Shown: piece after piece, positions 1,527-41,355 of the stretch
How positions within the stretch are numbered: position 1 is the first letter of the stretch
Layout: every line of letters begins with the position of its first letter
Virus record (IMG/VR): IMGVR_UViG_3300015371_000011
Coordinates: 1-64,000 of that record
Length of the DNA stretch: 64,000 bases
Source of the DNA: a virus
Reading direction: 5' to 3' (one strand)
Made by a program: the position numbers and the translations under genes
Notes under the pieces: model-generated
The model's input: only the letters and a program-made list of their open reading frames with translations
What the model was told of the DNA's origin: nothing
The model's database searches: none

Positions 1527-3461
1527 CTAATTCCCCCTTTTGCGCAGCGTGGCCGCGCCTATCTTCAACTCCGTGGCAGGCGCCACCTTGATGTAGTTGG
1601 CCGAGCCTGCCGGGGTGTCACGGTCCACGGCAATTTCCGCCGCCGTGCGCGCGCCGCTCCAGATGCGCAGGTCGTCTATCAGGCCAGTGAAGTGCTCATT
1701 ATAGATGCTCGACCCTATAATTATGCTGTCCTCTGCCCCGCTCACTGAGCTGCTGGGTACGGCACTACTCACAAGACTACCGTCGCGATAAAATTTAACA
1801 TCCGTGCCATCATAAGTAACGGCTATATGTGCCCATACATCCTGCGCCAATTGCGAGGTATCGCAGGCATAATAGTTTGGCCCCGCATCGGACGTGAAAC
1901 CGCCCACCGGCTCACTCCCCGCGCATAGATACGTCATCGTGGATGAGAACAGCCAATAACGTCCACTGTTGCCGTGCGACACGATAGAGACGAATGTATC
2001 GTTTGGCGTAATCGTCGGCTTAACCCACGCCTCTATCGTAAACTGAGACAGCGACAATGACGCCGATGCATTCACGGTCAAGCCGCCCGCCCCTGTGAAA
2101 GTCATGCAGTTACCATACTTGCATCCTGACGTGGTATGCGTGATCCCCGTGCCAACAGTAGTAACGTGATTGCCGTTACCGCTGGTATCCTGCGGATTGC
2201 CTGCGGCCTCGTTGAAGCCGTACTGCGCCACTAGCGTTGTGCCCACGGGCGGTGCGGTTCCCAAATACTCATAGGCCCCGATGTCCCATGCACCGCCCAC
2301 GGGCTGCGGCCTCGCGGTGTTGATTATATCGTGACTGTAATTGAAGCCGAGATCGGTGCCCTGATTTACCGCAGGAGAGTTGGACGGAATTTTCAGAAAA
2401 TCCGCGCTGGCTGAATTAGTAGAGATAAAACTCGGATTGCCCCCATACTGACAGCCTGTGCCGACCGACGTGCACAGATTATTAGATGCCGTATAGGATG
2501 GACCGCTCGAAACGACAAAATCCTGACCGCTATTGTTGTATGAAATGTTGTTCTTTATGACTGCGCCAGTGCTCGATTGAATTAAAATGCCCTGGCCGTT
2601 GTTGTAGATCGTATTCTGAACCACGACATTGTTGTTGCTGTTGCTACCCGCATAGCTGATAGCGATGCCACCTGTAGTGTCATAAACCAGGTTGTTATAA
2701 ACGTAGCTTTGTTGCGCGACTCTACCCAGGCCATCAGCATATGCACTTAGAACGATACCGCCGCAGTTGTGCACCCGATTGTTTCTAATGATGTTCCCGG
2801 TTGCATTGCCGTACTGAATTTGAATGCAGTAGCCTGCACTGTCTGTCGGCTTGCTTGCCTGTGAAAATTCGTTATCCTCGATAATCCCGTCCGGCGAACT
2901 CCAGTAAATGCCGTGGTCGTCACCTGCCGCTCCGCAGTCGTGGATATAGTTACCCCGCAAAGCGTTGGCATTGTTTGTTCCTAACGTCGCTTCCGGCCTG
3001 CCGCTATAAACACACGATATGCTGGAACCGGAAATTTCTCCGTTGTTAAACTCGATATGATTCGCGCCATCAACAATATCCACCAGCCCCGGCGTTACCA
3101 CCAAACCATCAAAGATGACGTGGTGGTCGGGGCCGAACACGTACAGATCGCCCGTGATTGTTGCGCCTTTATTGTTCTGTGCCCGAATGGTCGTATATCC
3201 GCCCGCGCTACCGCTAACCCATGTAATATATCCAGGCGAAGCGTAACTCCCATTAGTCAGAATCAGCGTATCACCCGCGGAAAGACAACCCACGCCCTGC
3301 GCAATGGTGCGGCTCGTATTAGCGCTACTCGGTTGACTTGCGCTATTCACGCAGTGCTGATTGCCATCGTTTCCGCTTGGCGATACCCAGTACGTAGCCG
3401 CTTGTGCCCGTACAGTAATCAAGAGAACTAAAATCAACAGTAGCAGCTTAATCTTAGTCAA
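1527..3461 (-). CDS. Signal-peptide protein: right-handed beta-helix (pectin-lyase-like) + choice-of-anchor-Q-like segment + LamG domain
   Basis: MTKIKLLLLILVLLITVRAQA; IIRNNRVHN/YNNLVY/QNTIYNN repeats; SPAVNQG..DIGAYEY; FTIEAWVK..WAHIAVTYDG..GLIDDLRIW. Confidence 0.85.
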   Translation of the reverse strand: MTKIKLLLLILVLLITVRAQAATYWVSPSGNDGNQHCVNSASQPSSANTSRTIAQGVGCLSAGDTLILTNGSYASPGYITWVSGSAGGYTTIRAQNNKGATITGDLYVFGPDHHVIFDGLVVTPGLVDIVDGANHIEFNNGEISGSSISCVYSGRPEATLGTNNANALRGNYIHDCGAAGDDHGIYWSSPDGIIEDNEFSQASKPTDSAGYCIQIQYGNATGNIIRNNRVHNCGGIVLSAYADGLGRVAQQSYVYNNLVYDTTGGIAISYAGSNSNNNVVVQNTIYNNGQGILIQSSTGAVIKNNISYNNSGQDFVVSSGPSYTASNNLCTSVGTGCQYGGNPSFISTNSASADFLKIPSNSPAVNQGTDLGFNYSHDIINTARPQPVGGAWDIGAYEYLGTAPPVGTTLVAQYGFNEAAGNPQDTSGNGNHVTTVGTGITHTTSGCKYGNCMTFTGAGGLTVNASASLSLSQFTIEAWVKPTITPNDTFVSIVSHGNSGRYWLFSSTMTYLCAGSEPVGGFTSDAGPNYYACDTSQLAQDVWAHIAVTYDGTDVKFYRDGSLVSSAVPSSSVSGAEDSIIIGSSIYNEHFTGLIDDLRIWSGARTAAEIAVDRDTPAGSANYIKVAPATELKIGAATLRKRGN

Positions 3462-4095
3462 TGGTCACAACCCTCTTACGTACCACACCCGCTGCCGATG
3501 CGGTTTGAAAGTTGTCGGCTTTGCAATAGTTCAAATCATCGTTCGCGTAGCAGCTGATGCCTATGCGGTTCCCTGAGAGCGGACTGGCGCTGTCGTCGTA
3601 AGTGGCGAGCGAAGTGCTGCCGTTCTTTAACAGCTCGATCACATGTGTCGTGGCGTTGTAGGTGCAAGTGAGAACATCGCCGGCGGCGAACACGTCACTT
3701 CCGTCCACGAGCCGCGTGGGGCTTCCGCTCGCGTATTTCCAGATGCTGGAGTTATCGGTTCGCCCGCGGCAGTAGTAAAACGTCTCAGTGGGTGGGGCAC
3801 CGGCGCTGAGCACGACCGCTGCGGCAGCCTTATTTGTGCCGTCAGTGAGCGCCACAATGTCTATACTCGCCTCCTGGTTGCCGCTGTACGTGGACTGGTT
3901 CCAGGTCACGAAGCAAACGGCGTCTAGTGTAGTGGCTTCAAGCACCGTGCTGCTGGCAATAGCGCAGTCGCTACTGTAGCCAACGCTCCAGTTGCTGCCC
4001 AAACTGGCGCGGTTAAAATCATCCAGCAAAACCGCCGCCCAAACCGCTGAGCACACAGCAAATAGAAACGCTATGACTAGAATCAATCGCCTCAT
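3454..4095 (-). CDS. Signal-peptide protein with lectin/beta-sandwich-like domain
   Basis: MRRLILVIAFLFAVCSAVWA; DDFNRA..ADNF. Confidence 0.75.
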   Translation of the reverse strand: MRRLILVIAFLFAVCSAVWAAVLLDDFNRASLGSNWSVGYSSDCAIASSTVLEATTLDAVCFVTWNQSTYSGNQEASIDIVALTDGTNKAAAAVVLSAGAPPTETFYYCRGRTDNSSIWKYASGSPTRLVDGSDVFAAGDVLTCTYNATTHVIELLKNGSTSLATYDDSASPLSGNRIGISCYANDDLNYCKADNFQTASAAGVVRKRVVTID

Positions 4096-36747: not shown

Positions 36748-37727
36748 GCCAACCCCGCAATCCGAAACATGCCCTTCCAGAATTGCCGCCCGTCAAATAT
36801 CTCTTTGGCCTTTTTCGCGCCTGCCTCGGCTATCCTTGCCGCCTCATTTTGCCCTGGCCCTAAATAGTATTTGAGTCTATCCACCAGCGTTGATGCGCCC
36901 TCGAAGCCAATGGCACCATTAGCCAGCAAGTGAAACGGCTCGCTGAATTTTACGTAATGCTTGAATTCATCTAATAGGCGCGGCGTCTCGTCGTTCGCGC
37001 TCTCCATCAACATTGCGCCGCATAAAGTCGCCTCAGACGTCCTGCCATTTAGGTGCTGAAACGTGACGGCACTGGTGAAATTTAGCGTAATCTTGGATCG
37101 GCGCAGCAACCACGCATAGGCGTCGATGCTATCCACTTTCTGCCCGACGATGCCGCCGCCGCGAGTCACGGCTATGCCCATACCATCAAGCCAGCCGAGA
37201 TTGAGCGCACGGTCGAGACGGCCCGACGTACTGCCGATAAAGCTCAGCGGTATGTCGCGCTCGCCAAACGGCGCAGAATAGAATATGCGCGGGTCTTTCG
37301 GCTCAGGCAGCCAAAACGTCTTGTCGGCAAACGACGTGAATTGTTTCCAGTGCTCGGCGGTATCGACAAACACATTGGCCGTGACGTGTGGCGCATACAT
37401 ATCGGCGTGCAGCACCACATTCGGCGCGCTCTCTAGCCACAGGCCAATGACGGGTATCTTGTAGCGGTCGCGCAGAAAGCGAAACAACTCAGGCTCGATA
37501 TTGCCCGCAAAATTCACTAGCGGCGTTGCCACAATCAAGTCTGGATTCCAACCGCTGGCATACGCGGCCAGCGCCTTGTGGCCGTCCTCACTCACGTCAA
37601 ACCAGTAGCGCTTAATATCAAATCCCAGCGCCTCGGCTGCACCGATTGAGCAATACTCGTGCGGTGATTGGCGTAAGTCGCTCTCATAGCCGTGCATCGT
37701 TTTGTGCGTGGCGAATAGGATTTTCAT
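36744..37727 (-). CDS. GT-B glycosyltransferase (CgeB/YkvP-like)
   Basis: DIPLSFIG..LRRSKITLNF..GRTSEATLCGAMLM. Confidence 0.82.
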   Translation of the reverse strand: MKILFATHKTMHGYESDLRQSPHEYCSIGAAEALGFDIKRYWFDVSEDGHKALAAYASGWNPDLIVATPLVNFAGNIEPELFRFLRDRYKIPVIGLWLESAPNVVLHADMYAPHVTANVFVDTAEHWKQFTSFADKTFWLPEPKDPRIFYSAPFGERDIPLSFIGSTSGRLDRALNLGWLDGMGIAVTRGGGIVGQKVDSIDAYAWLLRRSKITLNFTSAVTFQHLNGRTSEATLCGAMLMESANDETPRLLDEFKHYVKFSEPFHLLANGAIGFEGASTLVDRLKYYLGPGQNEAARIAEAGAKKAKEIFDGRQFWKGMFRIAGLA

Positions 37728-38374
37728 GCGAATTTTAGGACTTCTTGCGCCATGCGTTTGGCAGCTATCTCGCAATATTTCTCTTCTATCTCGATACCAA
37801 TAGCCTTGCGGCCCAAGTCCTTAGCGGCTCGCAATGTGGTTCCGCTGCCCATGAAGGGGTCAAGAATGGTTTCATCCTGCTGACAATAATTCGTCAAACA
37901 CCAATTCATCAATTTTAATGGCTTCTGCGTCGGATGGTCTCGTAGTGTCTCTTTGCCTAACAAACCATTCCATTCAATTGTTATTTTTTTTACAGACTTA
38001 CGATTGAATGAAGTCCAAGCTAATTCACAATCGCCAAAAGTTGGCATGGTGTTTAATTTATCCCAACTAATCCAATGGGTAGAGCGTGGCAACAAATCAG
38101 CAAAAAAATTACCGCCCCAAATAATAGCGTTTGATGCCATGTCTAAAATCATCAAAAAAATCTCTTGGCTAGGCCGTTCTGCGTCCCACGCATCAATGTA
38201 CTGGCGTCGCCTAATAGGCGTGCCAAAGCCGCCAAAGCCGTCAAAGCCGTGTGACATACTCACACCATACGGCGGATCAGTCAGCACTAAATCCACCGGC
38301 TCAAGCTGCAGCAGTATTTCTCTACAATCCCCATGAAATATCGTCACCGCATCGTCCTGGTAATAGGGTTTCAT
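37724..38374 (-). CDS. DNA methyltransferase (N6-mA, beta class)
   Basis: LTDPPY..HPTQKP..LDPFMGSGTT. Confidence 0.92.
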   Translation of the reverse strand: MKPYYQDDAVTIFHGDCREILLQLEPVDLVLTDPPYGVSMSHGFDGFGGFGTPIRRRQYIDAWDAERPSQEIFLMILDMASNAIIWGGNFFADLLPRSTHWISWDKLNTMPTFGDCELAWTSFNRKSVKKITIEWNGLLGKETLRDHPTQKPLKLMNWCLTNYCQQDETILDPFMGSGTTLRAAKDLGRKAIGIEIEEKYCEIAAKRMAQEVLKFA

Positions 38375-41355
38375 AGCAATAATATCTGCCCCGACTTGCG
38401 CCCGTAGAGCACGACTTCACGCGCAAACTTCTTCTTATCGCCGCCGTAATGCCACGGCGTGGGTATGCGCCACATCTGGTTTTCAATCACAGTGTCGTCG
38501 TACAGAAGCCCGCCCGTCTCGTCGTAGAATCCCGCCAAGTCATCGGCTGCCCTGAAAAATGTGGCCTCCTCTGGCCCCCAGTAAACCTCGCCGTACTCAG
38601 GCATGAGCGCCGCTATCGGCTCGCCACGCTCAAGCACGCCGTCAAGAATCTTATTGTACTCGGCCATCTCGTTGCGCCAGAAAGCGCCGTTGCTGTACAT
38701 AATCGCTTCGATGAATGTGCTCGGCATAATACCCTTGGTAAGCAAGTCCTGCAGGATAAAAATACCCAACTTTAGCCCGTGCAGCGCCATAAAAATCCAT
38801 GAAAAAATATTCATGCGCCGCCACTTGACTATGTCCATACTGCTCGTCTCGACAACCAAATCCTCATACTCGGCCAGATAACCATCGGCCCGTACCGTGC
38901 CGTGAATCTCGGCTAACTCTATACGCCGTGTGCGGATACCAAACTGCGCCTGATAGTCGGGCCGGCCCATCTCGGTATTAGGCAAGGCCATCAGCGGGTA
39001 GATAAACACCTGCCCACTCATGCCAGCCGCCACGATCTCGTCCAGCCCCTGCTTCCACGTCTCGTATGTCTCACCCGGCAGCCCGACAATAAATTCGCTA
39101 TATGTCGGCACGCCTTCGGCGTTGAAACGCTCCTGCAGCTTCTCGTAGGTAGACATTTTGATATTGCTGCGCTTGATATTCTGCAGCACCGTGGCGTTGT
39201 TGCTTTGGCGTGCGAGCGTGACGCTTTTAGACATGCCTGCGTCGGCTAGCATCTTGCCTACGGCGTAAACCTTGTCGTCGGTGTTCTTGCCGTAATTGAC
39301 GCGAAACCGCTGCGGATAGCCGTATTTCTCTTTGGTGGCTATCAGGTACTCGGCTATTTCACGGTCGCGTGCGAGCATGCCAAAATTCGACGCGCTCCCA
39401 AGTGCATACGGGATTTTATTACGCCCCAACCATTCAATCTCCGCAAATACTCGGTCTAGTCCATAGTAGCTCATCTTGTGTTGCCCAAGTCCATATTCGC
39501 AGAATGAACAATTTTCACAGAGCAACCCGTTAGCAAAAAAATTATGATTCGGCGTAGCTTCAACAATATCATAAACTCGCCGATGCTCGCTTGGCGAAAT
39601 CTCTTCTACTGCACACCAAGAAACCTTTGCAGTCGTTGCACCATCGCTTCGTTCAACTTGTCGTCGTTCCAAATCACAAAAATCTCCCAACCGAAATATT
39701 GATAATCTGCCGCTTCCATTTCCACGTCCTTTTCCTCTTGGTGCCAATAACGACCATGAGCGAGAATCGCTTTTCTTACTCCCTTTTTGCAGTGGATAAA
39801 ATCTGGATTGCGACAACCTCCCGATACTCCCGGCCCCAACCAAAATGTCCTGTCGCCAGTATATTTGAATGGCAGTTGATACTGTTGAAAAAATTTTATC
39901 AGCTTGCTCTCGAAACCATTCGGCGGCTCGCCAGCCTTTAAAAAATGAGCGGCATGCCATTGCGGATCGTTCCAATATTGCCGCATCTTTTGCTTCCACG
40001 ATTCGATCATTTGCTTGTGCTTGATTGGATCTAACCGTCGCATCGGATTGTTGTCGCCAGTTTGCCATGCGTAACCGAGCCTCTTGCTTGTTTCCACCCC
40101 TTTCCTCGCATGTGCTAGTCGTTGTTCTCGACTCATTCGCCGCATTGGACTGTTGTCGCCAGTGAATTTCAGGTAGTGCCCCATTGCTCGTTGCGTTGCT
40201 ACCACCTTCGCTACGTGTTCTGGCGATTTCTTTATTCCCTTGTTCATACCCGGATGTCTGTAGAGACCCGCTGCTGCTGCCCTCTTTATCCCCTCTATTC
40301 GCCGCTCTTCGCCTCCGCTTTGCTTCCGACTTGCTGCAGCTTTGATTCCCCGGAGTCTTTGCACTTCCAACGGAGTCGTTAATACTCTCTGTCTCAAGTG
40401 CGGCAGATAGCACCCCATCGAACAATACATCCTCTCTTTTGGCCGATGATCTATCGACGTTCCACAACCCTTGCAAAATCTTGTCGCCGACTTTAAGGTC
40501 GCCTGCTGTAACCCATCCCCTGTCGGTGTAAAAAGGATGATCTCTAGTTGCTCCAATTTCAGAACCTCCCGCTACTATCTTGATGGTTTCCTTAATGCCG
40601 CTACAAATCGAAAATGCGACTCTATTCCACGCAAGGCATTCGTCTTTCTCATTCCAACCTAAAATATAATCACCGGACTGCACTGCTTCTATATTTTTTT
40701 GCCCTGTTTGAGTAACTACCACCGTTCCTTCCGCGAGACACATAAATGGGCATCCGCGATCCTGCTCCAAGACGTAGCTATACTCTATTGGCTCTGGATG
40801 CTGCTCCAATAACCCGTCAAATAAGCCGGTCAACGCGGGCGACGGCAATTCATTCAACTCTTTCTGAAACGGATAATCCTGAGCGCAGTAGTGCACATCA
40901 TTGTCTCGATACGTTATCTGCGGGATACCTTCAAAGTCCGTGCTGTGAGTTTCCGCCCAACGCTTTAATACGGCAGTAAACGCCTGCTCACCCGCGCGTC
41001 TGACAGCTACGTCGATAAATGGATGCTTGGATAAATACTCAATGGCGTTATCGGGCACCTGCAATCCACCAAACACAATCAGGCACTCAGGCCAACGGCG
41101 TTTCACTTCGGCGGCTACTGCCAGGTTTAATTGCTCATTCCACACCGCCACAGAGAAAGCCGCCACGTCCACACGGTTGTCATAGTGCTTGAGAATATTG
41201 GCCGGCTTATCCACGCAGTAAAGAAAATCGCCAAACTCGTAATTGGCCTTGATGTCGTCATTCTGCTCGGCATAGGCGCGCAGCAATCCCGTAGCCAGCG
41301 GCAAGTAGCAGTTGCGGCCGAGCCTGATGTTATATTCGTTTAGGACTACGCGCAT
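38371..41355 (-). CDS. B12-binding radical SAM enzyme with an intein inside the CxxxCxxC motif
   Basis: RGCPFM|intein|CSFC; IVGLPGETYETW. Confidence 0.88.
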   Translation of the reverse strand: MRVVLNEYNIRLGRNCYLPLATGLLRAYAEQNDDIKANYEFGDFLYCVDKPANILKHYDNRVDVAAFSVAVWNEQLNLAVAAEVKRRWPECLIVFGGLQVPDNAIEYLSKHPFIDVAVRRAGEQAFTAVLKRWAETHSTDFEGIPQITYRDNDVHYCAQDYPFQKELNELPSPALTGLFDGLLEQHPEPIEYSYVLEQDRGCPFMCLAEGTVVVTQTGQKNIEAVQSGDYILGWNEKDECLAWNRVAFSICSGIKETIKIVAGGSEIGATRDHPFYTDRGWVTAGDLKVGDKILQGLWNVDRSSAKREDVLFDGVLSAALETESINDSVGSAKTPGNQSCSKSEAKRRRRAANRGDKEGSSSGSLQTSGYEQGNKEIARTRSEGGSNATSNGALPEIHWRQQSNAANESRTTTSTCEERGGNKQEARLRMANWRQQSDATVRSNQAQANDRIVEAKDAAILERSAMACRSFFKGWRAAEWFREQADKIFSTVSTAIQIYWRQDILVGAGSIGRLSQSRFYPLQKGSKKSDSRSWSLLAPRGKGRGNGSGRLSIFRLGDFCDLERRQVERSDGATTAKVSWCAVEEISPSEHRRVYDIVEATPNHNFFANGLLCENCSFCEYGLGQHKMSYYGLDRVFAEIEWLGRNKIPYALGSASNFGMLARDREIAEYLIATKEKYGYPQRFRVNYGKNTDDKVYAVGKMLADAGMSKSVTLARQSNNATVLQNIKRSNIKMSTYEKLQERFNAEGVPTYSEFIVGLPGETYETWKQGLDEIVAAGMSGQVFIYPLMALPNTEMGRPDYQAQFGIRTRRIELAEIHGTVRADGYLAEYEDLVVETSSMDIVKWRRMNIFSWIFMALHGLKLGIFILQDLLTKGIMPSTFIEAIMYSNGAFWRNEMAEYNKILDGVLERGEPIAALMPEYGEVYWGPEEATFFRAADDLAGFYDETGGLLYDDTVIENQMWRIPTPWHYGGDKKKFAREVVLYGRKSGQILLL
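39511..40740 (-). mobile_element. Intein (410 aa)
   Basis: CLAEGTVV..TRDHPFY..GW..LKVGD..VYDI..HNFFANGLLCEN|C. Confidence 0.88.
39606..40556 (-). CDS. Out-of-frame endonuclease nested in the intein (Zn-finger, NUMOD3-like repeats, Vsr/DUF559-like nuclease); true start uncertain
   Basis: CKGCG..YCSMGC; NKGIKKSPEH; TGDNSPMRR/TGDNNPMRR; PNGFE..FKYTG..NPDFI..HGRYWH..IWNDD. Confidence 0.8.
   Translation of the reverse strand: MEQLEIILFTPTGDGLQQATLKSATRFCKGCGTSIDHRPKERMYCSMGCYLPHLRQRVLTTPLEVQRLRGIKAAASRKQSGGEERRIEGIKRAAAAGLYRHPGMNKGIKKSPEHVAKVVATQRAMGHYLKFTGDNSPMRRMSREQRLAHARKGVETSKRLGYAWQTGDNNPMRRLDPIKHKQMIESWKQKMRQYWNDPQWHAAHFLKAGEPPNGFESKLIKFFQQYQLPFKYTGDRTFWLGPGVSGGCRNPDFIHCKKGVRKAILAHGRYWHQEEKDVEMEAADYQYFGWEIFVIWNDDKLNEAMVQRLQRFLGVQ

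Follow-up and report, generated by a model that had tools for sequence, protein, structure and literature searches.

How can a single strand of phage DNA encode an intein that runs without interruption through its host gene and, over the same nucleotides, a complete nuclease gene in a different reading frame, and what keeps both frames open? The question is raised by a gene for a B12-binding radical S-adenosylmethionine (SAM) enzyme precursor in the IMG/VR record IMGVR_UViG_3300015371_000011, an 81.5-kb phage record with terminal repeats, of which we analyzed the first 64,000 nucleotides (the window); the sequencing runs that contain this stretch are rhizosphere metagenomes. The gene (38371–41355, on the minus strand, as are all features of the locus described here) is interrupted by a 410-residue intein (39511–40740), and the intein-coding DNA entirely encloses an open reading frame (ORF) of 316 amino acids (39606–40556), which is shifted by +1 from the intein frame. 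We consider it likely that the two make up a composite selfish element, a mini-intein with a +1-frame Vsr-like homing endonuclease gene, which resides in the iron-sulfur (Fe-S) motif of the phage radical SAM gene.

Selection keeps both frames open in the window, since shuffling in neither direction yields a stop-free sequence. When the synonymous codons of the nuclease were permuted, a mean of 14.0 stops was expected in the intein frame, where none is observed, and not one of 20,000 permutations of the nuclease core left that frame free of stops. The third frame served as a control and contained 20 stops against 17 expected. In the reverse test, shuffling within the intein frame predicted 6.3 stops in the nuclease frame, which was stop-free in 0 of 10,000 shuffles. 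Contigs from the Logan assemblies of four sequencing runs (2012, 2016 and 2018), each assembled run by run, match the window without a single mismatch or gap. Both junctions are spanned by one contig of 1386 nucleotides; the depth of the contigs is low (3–5x). The check for compensating indels and the codon-shuffling check thus both came out in favor of the dual-coding intein that a first-pass annotation of this DNA had proposed, and the coordinates of the host gene, the intein, the nuclease ORF and the TAG at 39606 all hold.

The way in which the frames are kept open is simple. In this arrangement, a stop in the intein frame arises only where a nuclease codon ending in T precedes a codon starting with AA, AG or GA. 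Codons ending in T are absent from these positions in the window nuclease (0 of 79, as compared with 58 of 211 elsewhere; Fisher p = 1e-9), whereas codons ending in C are enriched there (28 of 79, as compared with 18 of 211). The host frame is held open purely by the choice of wobble base in the nuclease, which is NNC or NNR and never NNT before AA, AG or GA.

The same layout recurs in other viral and metagenome sequences. Relatives were collected by pattern scans with alignment of close homologs, which gave 6 viral and 75 metagenome loci, and nested units were recognized with small hidden Markov models of the N-terminal lobe, the C-terminal lobe and the Vsr domain. Single-sequence scans of viral contigs, a first metagenome scan and a tblastn search against GenBank phages gave no relatives, and a scan of genome contigs gave one distant free-standing relative only. 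Seventeen further complete units, from viral and metagenome contigs, have a Vsr-like ORF nested in a contiguous intein (L014, L015, L016, which is the same as L028, two in one gene of L020, L021, L023, L024, L025, L030, L031, L032, which is nearly identical to L031, L033, L036, L037, L040 and L044). The nuclease is in the +1 frame in all 17, and none has a stop in the intein frame, where 6–18 would be expected; the loci L034, L041 and L043, which are truncated by contig ends, are likewise stop-free. When these units are pooled with the window and L035, codons ending in T make up 1 of 1586 codons before AA, AG or GA and 927 of 3926 elsewhere (p about 1e-150), the single T-ending codon being supplied by L035.

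Natural controls are available among the relatives. The 56 relatives without flanking intein lobes have 11–63 stops in the corresponding frame and do not avoid T, which ends 31.9% of the codons before AA, AG or GA and 35.4% elsewhere. In L026 (1929–4399), a truly fractured radical SAM gene, a stop closes the N-terminal intein half (IntN), the nuclease starts at an ATG of its own, and the C-terminal half (IntC) lies with the C-extein in another frame. Here, the IntN frame contains 33 stops and T-ending codons are not avoided (33 of 124, as compared with 43 of 138). The loci L035:603 and L033:2609 are 98.6% identical copies that differ in a single C-to-T change at a nuclease wobble position, which creates a stop in the intein frame of L035. 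This is the sole stop in any nested intein frame, and it represents either a fresh inactivation or split of the intein, or a read error.

Comparisons between the units indicate which of the two frames carries the information. The nucleases of L015 and L016 are 50% identical and the peptides in their linker frames 26%, and the nucleases of L030 and L033 are 56–57% identical to that of L040, as against 28–30% in the linker frame. In the latter comparison, 131–142 nucleotide changes fall at nuclease wobble positions and 75–89 at positions 1 and 2. The identities of the splicing lobes and of the nucleases co-vary over 16 units, which are not phylogenetically independent (Spearman 0.58, Mantel p 2e-4), a pattern that fits co-inheritance as one element.

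The host genes of all nested units are radical SAM genes. The insertion is placed before the first cysteine of the CxxxCxxC motif (e.g., L015, L016 and L036), before the second (the window, L024 and L044) or before the third (L014, L023 and L025), and there is one further insertion site outside these positions. Two homologous proteins, P0018 (588 amino acids) and P0061 (600 amino acids), which are known from protein sequence alone, have a radical SAM N-extein, an IntN and a zinc-ribbon and Vsr-like nuclease in one frame and end after the nuclease; their insertion site is that of the window, before Cys2. These may be half-fused intermediates, or they may result from indel errors. Searches for longer forms with the nuclease fused in frame found none, which we take as weak evidence.

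Two of the loci contain more than one intein per gene. In L023 (1752–5291), two inteins (2394–2810 and 2832–3932) lie seven codons apart in one radical SAM gene, a nuclease-free mini-intein before Cys1 and a nuclease-bearing intein before Cys3 (...ILVHN/CPYSCTF/CLVGD..., with slashes at the junctions). In L020 (426–4706), a radical SAM ORF of 1427 amino acids contains inteins at 1062–2258 and 2790–3980, each with a +1 nested Vsr-like ORF, and the second of these is located outside the Fe-S motif (...INIYT/C...HN/CEVLPN).

Why the nuclease should always be found in the +1 frame is a question in its own right. In this phase, the T of any stop in the host frame falls on the wobble position of a nuclease codon, and since a change from NNT to NNC is always synonymous, every such stop can be removed silently. 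In 16 nucleases, no pair of residues forces a stop in the observed phase, whereas 1–7 pairs (Met followed by certain residues) would do so in the other phase. The uniform use of +1 among the related units may be due to this silent removability of stops. A “frame 3” arrangement known for another nuclease also has to be weighed in judging this code-based reason (Gosselin et al., 2025; bioRxiv 10.1101/2025.01.02.630785).

Turning to the host protein, the 994-amino-acid ORF matches the Pfam families B12-binding, Radical_SAM, Intein_splicing and PT-HINT, and is predicted to give a product of 584 amino acids after splicing. The N-extein (amino acids 1–205; 40741–41355) ends in ...RGCPFM and includes the first cysteine of CxxxCxxC, and the C-extein (38371–39510) starts with CSFCEYG... 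and contains the radical SAM core. The intein thus interrupts the Fe-S motif, and its excision in silico restores C-P-F-M-C-S-F-C; in the coding DNA with the intein removed, the joined extein junction reads ...CCATTTATG followed directly by TGTTCATTC.... The corresponding motif, GCPYSCTFC, is unbroken in intein-free phage homologs of 630 amino acids. The first 4 nucleotides of the adjacent gene, which encodes a 216-amino-acid DNA methyltransferase with a DPPY motif (37724–38374, minus strand), coincide with the last 4 of the radical SAM gene; the two frames thus overlap, and translational coupling is possible.

The inserted segment (host amino acids 206–615) runs from Cys1 to a terminal Glu-Asn and is followed by a +1 cysteine, which is the second cysteine of CxxxCxxC (GCPFM/CLAEG...LLCEN/CSFC). 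It matches Pfam Intein_splicing with 37.0 bits (cut-off 35.8) and also PT-HINT, and of the features of a class 1 intein it has Cys1 in CLAEGT and the block B residues T65-R-D-H68; at the C-terminal junction, Asn410 and the +1 cysteine are present, but Glu precedes the Asn in place of His. An AlphaFold2 model built on 16 related inteins, among which C1, T65, H68, G75 and W76 are invariant, gave predicted local distance difference test (pLDDT) values of 90–97 for residues 1–92 and 371–410. The N-terminal splicing lobe (intein residues 1–94; 40459–40740; pLDDT 93–97) contains blocks A and B with T65-x-x-H68, and the C-terminal lobe (residues 371–410; 39511–39630; pLDDT 90–95) contains blocks F and G and ends in ...NFFANGLLCEN. 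The confident parts superpose as a HINT fold on the NpuDnaB mini-intein (Z (VIA) 22.6, root-mean-square deviation 1.3 Å over 134 residues) and also on the RecA and NrdJ-1 (Z 22.0 each) and gp41-1 inteins. By predicted fold and residues, the 410-residue insert would be a class 1 mini-intein, and it is predicted to splice.

Between the lobes lies a linker (intein residues 95–370; 39631–40458), which is the nuclease gene read in the −1 phase. It is stop-free and predicted to be disordered, with pLDDT values of 32–54 for residues 95–369 and one long predicted helix (residues 220–267). The description of splicing blocks joined by a stop-free stretch rich in Ser, Gly, Arg and Ala holds up; these four account for 126 of the 286 residues in the intein-frame stretch over the nuclease ORF. 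Searches of Pfam and PHROG found no match within the linker, and its fold matches are generic single helices only. Because the nuclease is better conserved than the linker and changes cluster at the nuclease wobble positions, the linker is, as far as the sequences tell, a passenger whose one requirement is to remain free of stops.

The protein encoded in the +1 frame (36.6 kDa, isoelectric point 9.9) is a member of a large family, with 1609 homologs at E<=1e-3 in a search of 1.84 billion representatives, nearly all of them 150–400 amino acids long. It contains a zinc ribbon, CxxC-x14-CxxxC (nuclease residues 28–49; 40410–40475), which is conserved in homologs; the DNA for its first CxxC also encodes part of the last strand of the N-splicing lobe. 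Two G-D-N-x-P-M-R-R repeats (residues 133–140 and 167–174; 40035–40160) probably form a DNA-binding module. The Vsr-like catalytic domain (residues ~198–316; 39609–39965) contains E216, D252 in NPDF, H267-G-x-Y-W-H272 and E281, and the stop codon TAG (39606–39608) is located where the intein frame encodes the first strand of the C-splicing lobe. A search of the PDB with phmmer and the single nuclease sequence gave chance matches only, and a family profile was needed: the profile of 62 homologs matched I-Bth0305I (3R3P) with an E value of 7e-9 and E. coli Vsr (1CW0) with 9e-5.

The structural predictions agree with this assignment. The AlphaFold2 model of the nuclease has pLDDT values of 92–98 in the catalytic domain, and in Foldseek it matches 1VSR, 1CW0 and 3R3P best (probability 0.99–1.0; template modeling score, TM(target), 0.48–0.59). 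In the profile alignment, D252 corresponds to Vsr Asp51 and Y-W-H272 to Vsr Phe67-Trp68-His69; E216, D252 and H272, which align with Vsr Glu25, Asp51 and His69, are invariant or nearly so among the relatives. The final catalytic position (Vsr Asp97) is occupied by Glu281, nine residues after the histidine as in I-Bth0305I, which has Asp. The Pfam models NUMOD3 and Vsr match 13 and 6 of the 62 relatives, respectively, but neither matches the nuclease of the window itself (NUMOD3 at E<=0.1). The zinc finger and the Vsr-like fold named in the first-pass annotation are thus recovered, whereas its NUMOD3-like segment is not matched by PF07460 in this protein. We interpret the +1 ORF as a Vsr-like nuclease of the free-standing type, with putative cleavage activity.

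How might such a nested gene be translated? The nuclease frame is closed upstream by a TAG at 40572–40574, and translation of the nuclease must therefore begin downstream of it. It had been thought that no good Shine-Dalgarno (SD) sequence and ATG precede the zinc finger, so that the nuclease would depend on a +1 frameshift or on weak internal initiation at TTG 40556. However, a strong SD sequence, GGGAGGT (40564–40570), is found within the intein codons for Ala-Gly-Gly, and the TTG (40554–40556) sits 7–8 nucleotides behind it. The predicted anti-SD pairing at this TTG has a ΔG of −11.0 kcal/mol; among 2544 internal start-like triplets of the window, 0.08% attain this value, and a comparison with matched control windows gives p = 0.003. 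The homolog P0001, which is 48% identical, begins with Met one codon from the TTG-equivalent position in the alignment, and SD-like pairing before an early start codon is modestly enriched over the 17 units (Fisher combined p 0.003). Internal initiation at TTG 40556 is most likely the start of the nuclease; of the earlier alternatives, internal initiation is thus favored, although at −11 kcal/mol it would not be weak, and frameshifting is unsupported.

Several homologs share an N-terminal ...T-P-x-x-D-G... stretch, which is the +1 reading of the conserved block B (H-P-F-x-T-x-x-G-W) and suggests that the nuclease overlaps block B in the same way in those homologs. RNA folding around the SD and TTG revealed no structure beyond that of shuffled sequences (z 0.55), and a promoter scan of the coding strand gave no sigma-70-like site ahead of the nuclease. 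The −11 kcal/mol site of the nuclease stands out even against the real genes of this phage. That separate initiation serves to uncouple the dose of a toxic nuclease from the splicing of the host protein is speculation.

The hypothesis that we favor for the composite element can be outlined as follows. The endonuclease slot of a class 1 mini-intein would hold a Vsr-like gene of the free-standing type in the +1 frame, and as the host frame has no stop across the nuclease gene, ribosomes can make one 994-amino-acid precursor. In this precursor, the two splicing lobes would be linked by about 275 meaningless, disordered residues, and they would dock, excise the 45-kDa intein and restore CPFM-CSFC. 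The nuclease would be made separately from TTG 40556 behind its own SD, a step for which the sequence offers support. It would then cut intein-less alleles at the DNA encoding CxxxCxxC, and repair would copy the whole unit in.

Several observations weigh against this hypothesis. The penultimate residue of the intein is Glu (39511–39516, minus strand) instead of the usual His, and asparagine cyclization could be slowed as a result; the related inteins end in His-Asn, except for Ser-Asn in L023 and Lys-Asn in L024. About a third of the related units have weak SD-like sites or none, so that the route of initiation may differ among hosts, and the gene starts of this phage mostly lack a strong SD (median best −4 kcal/mol, with 9% at <= −8), in a survey of all long ORFs of the window with crudely assigned starts. 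Furthermore, the window and all close relatives have Leu (Leu265) at the position of Vsr Phe62, which is acidic in I-Bth0305I and in distant free-standing loci. The nested clade reads A-I-L-A-H-G-R-Y-W-H here (39741–39764, minus strand), with a His at the position of Vsr His64, as in Vsr, and with Leu in place of a conserved acidic residue, the cleavage activity of the nuclease is something that we infer. Finally, the uniform +1 phase could equally well reflect common descent.

We also considered other explanations for the locus. One is programmed +1 ribosomal frameshifting out of the host frame, which would produce a fusion of N-extein, IntN and nuclease; a run of five T residues (CCT TTT TAC, 40530–40534) would allow tRNA-Phe to re-pair in +1, and P0018 and P0061 are just such single-frame fusions. 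However, the run is not followed by a stimulator such as a rare codon or a stop, and it is the only re-pairing site and is not conserved, as block B differs elsewhere (HRIYT, HPVWT and others). In addition, the strong SD and TTG are located upstream of the run, P0001 has its Met at the same place, and a fusion of this kind would waste host protein, all of which makes frameshifting unlikely. It could also be argued that only the host frame matters and that the nuclease ORF is a decaying, unexpressed relic, considering that the nested clade has no acidic residue at the Vsr Phe62 position and that the ORF of L030 is shortened at its N-terminus. Yet the ORF is intact in all units, despite the 6.3 stops expected if the intein frame alone were selected, its residues E216, D252 and H272 are retained, and substitutions cluster at its wobble positions. 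Moreover, at least three adjacent insertion sites and the presence of two copies in one gene imply recent mobility, and we regard the relic hypothesis as very unlikely.

Less probable again is that the linker in the intein frame is a functional folded or regulatory domain, which for example controls splicing. The linker is always translated with the precursor and has the long predicted helix at residues 220–267, but its pLDDT values are low throughout, it is 26–30% identical between loci, its sequence follows the nuclease codons, and it has neither Pfam or PHROG matches nor fold matches other than generic single helices. A split intein, the halves of which are translated separately and joined in trans, is the form in which Vsr-like endonuclease genes have been described (Dassa et al., 2009; PMC2677866) and is realized in L026. 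For the window, it hardly deserves credence, as there is no stop after IntN and no separate start for IntC, and stops are strongly avoided right up to IntC, which would be pointless in a split gene and is not seen in L026. As for an artifact of assembly or sequencing, in which two compensating indels mask an ordinary in-frame endonuclease, the contig depth of just 3–5x is the one point in its favor. The chance of this is negligible, given that four runs from three different years agree without gaps, that an accidental frame would hold about 14 stops and that the layout is common to 17 other units.

The composite element of mini-intein and nested nuclease gene could be viewed in a broader context, although we rate the broader hypothesis at about even odds. 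It states that a widespread and long-kept element, consisting of a mini-intein and a Vsr-like gene, occupies the CxxxCxxC codons of radical SAM genes before Cys1, Cys2 or Cys3, that the genetic code dictates its +1 phase, the only one in which all stops of the host frame can be erased without altering the nuclease protein, and that L026, P0018 and P0061 belong to a series that leads toward intein domains. If this is true, L026, the nested units and P0018 and P0061 would form a natural series from a free-standing endonuclease gene to an intein domain. With fractured, nested and half-fused relatives in one family, the model of Dassa, Gogarten and colleagues on how intein endonuclease domains arose can be put to the test.

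Our findings add a large and internally controlled data set on selfish endonuclease genes that are overprinted on inteins, of which a handful of cases had been known. They show that a second frame of roughly 290 codons is kept open by a single wobble rule, they offer a code-based reason for the phase of an overprinted nuclease, and they reveal a hot spot at the radical SAM Fe-S motif, where three insertion sites lie side by side. A practical consequence is that gene callers will annotate just one of the two proteins. The predicted tolerance of the splicing lobes for a disordered insert of ~275 residues should also be of interest for intein engineering.

Among known systems, fractured genes come close to the element in the window. 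In these, genes for Vsr-like or GIY-YIG endonucleases are located between the halves of split inteins, with 3′ overlaps of 6–69 bp, and routes from fractured genes to contiguous inteins have been proposed (Dassa et al., 2009; PMC2677866). The nuclease family (NUMOD-type repeats and a Vsr-like domain), its place between the intein halves, the setting in phages and metagenomes and the overlap of the nuclease 3′ end with the coding sequence of IntC are all shared, and the predicted fold of the window intein matches those of gp41-1 and NrdJ-1 from the same study. The differences are that IntN of a fractured gene ends in a stop, a spacer of 27–51 nucleotides follows, IntC has its own Met and splicing occurs in trans, whereas the window has an unbroken frame, with the start of the nuclease inside IntN codons.

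The nuclease itself resembles the EDxHD homing endonuclease I-Bth0305I (Taylor et al., 2011; PMC3239194) and Vsr in its predicted catalytic fold and in the succession of motifs (E...PD-F...Y-W-H...acidic), and it is likewise bipartite with N-terminal DNA-binding repeats. However, I-Bth0305I is encoded in a group I intron and the window nuclease in an intein, and the clade of the window differs from I-Bth0305I in having Leu and not an acidic residue at the Vsr Phe62 position, Glu for the last Asp and, closer to Vsr, His at the Vsr His64 position. Hidden out-of-frame HNH endonucleases of the ShiLan type have been described in phage methylase genes that have no intein (Arsenault et al., 2025; PMC11855218). 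As in the window, the host frame is stop-free although a homing endonuclease is encoded over it in another frame, and the translation of the nuclease is an open question there too. In the ShiLan type, however, the insert stays in the host protein and the HNH nuclease has a GTG start with no detectable ribosome-binding site, whereas in the window the lobes are predicted to remove the read-through segment and an SD is present. According to its title, a further report concerns a cyanobacterial dnaX intein that encodes a homing endonuclease out of frame (bioRxiv 10.64898/2026.09.14.751524); the host gene and lineage named there differ from those of the window.

The closest parallels are the actinophage inteins with an endonuclease in another frame or on the other strand, which comprise an antisense LAGLIDADG, an antisense Vsr-like and a sense “frame 3” endonuclease VII-like case (Gosselin, Arsenault and Gogarten, 2025; bioRxiv 10.1101/2025.01.02.630785). 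According to the same study, Vsr-like endonucleases are otherwise known only with split inteins. These inteins and the one in the window share a contiguous splicing domain, a structureless endonuclease slot and a gene of the free-standing type in another frame, and the origin proposed by Gosselin et al., in which a free-standing endonuclease gene invades an intein, would be the same here. Those inteins interrupt genes for terminase, polymerase, capsid and thymidylate synthase, as compared with radical SAM genes in the family of the window; their Vsr-like case is antisense, whereas ours is on the sense strand in +1; and our set contains about 18 units in one phase with quantified avoidance of stops. 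The novelty implied by the first-pass annotation was overstated, since out-of-frame intein endonucleases had been published in 2025. The principle is already in the literature, and what the present family adds is a Vsr-like version that lies on the sense strand in +1 within radical SAM genes and occurs broadly, together with the wobble rule and a set of natural controls.

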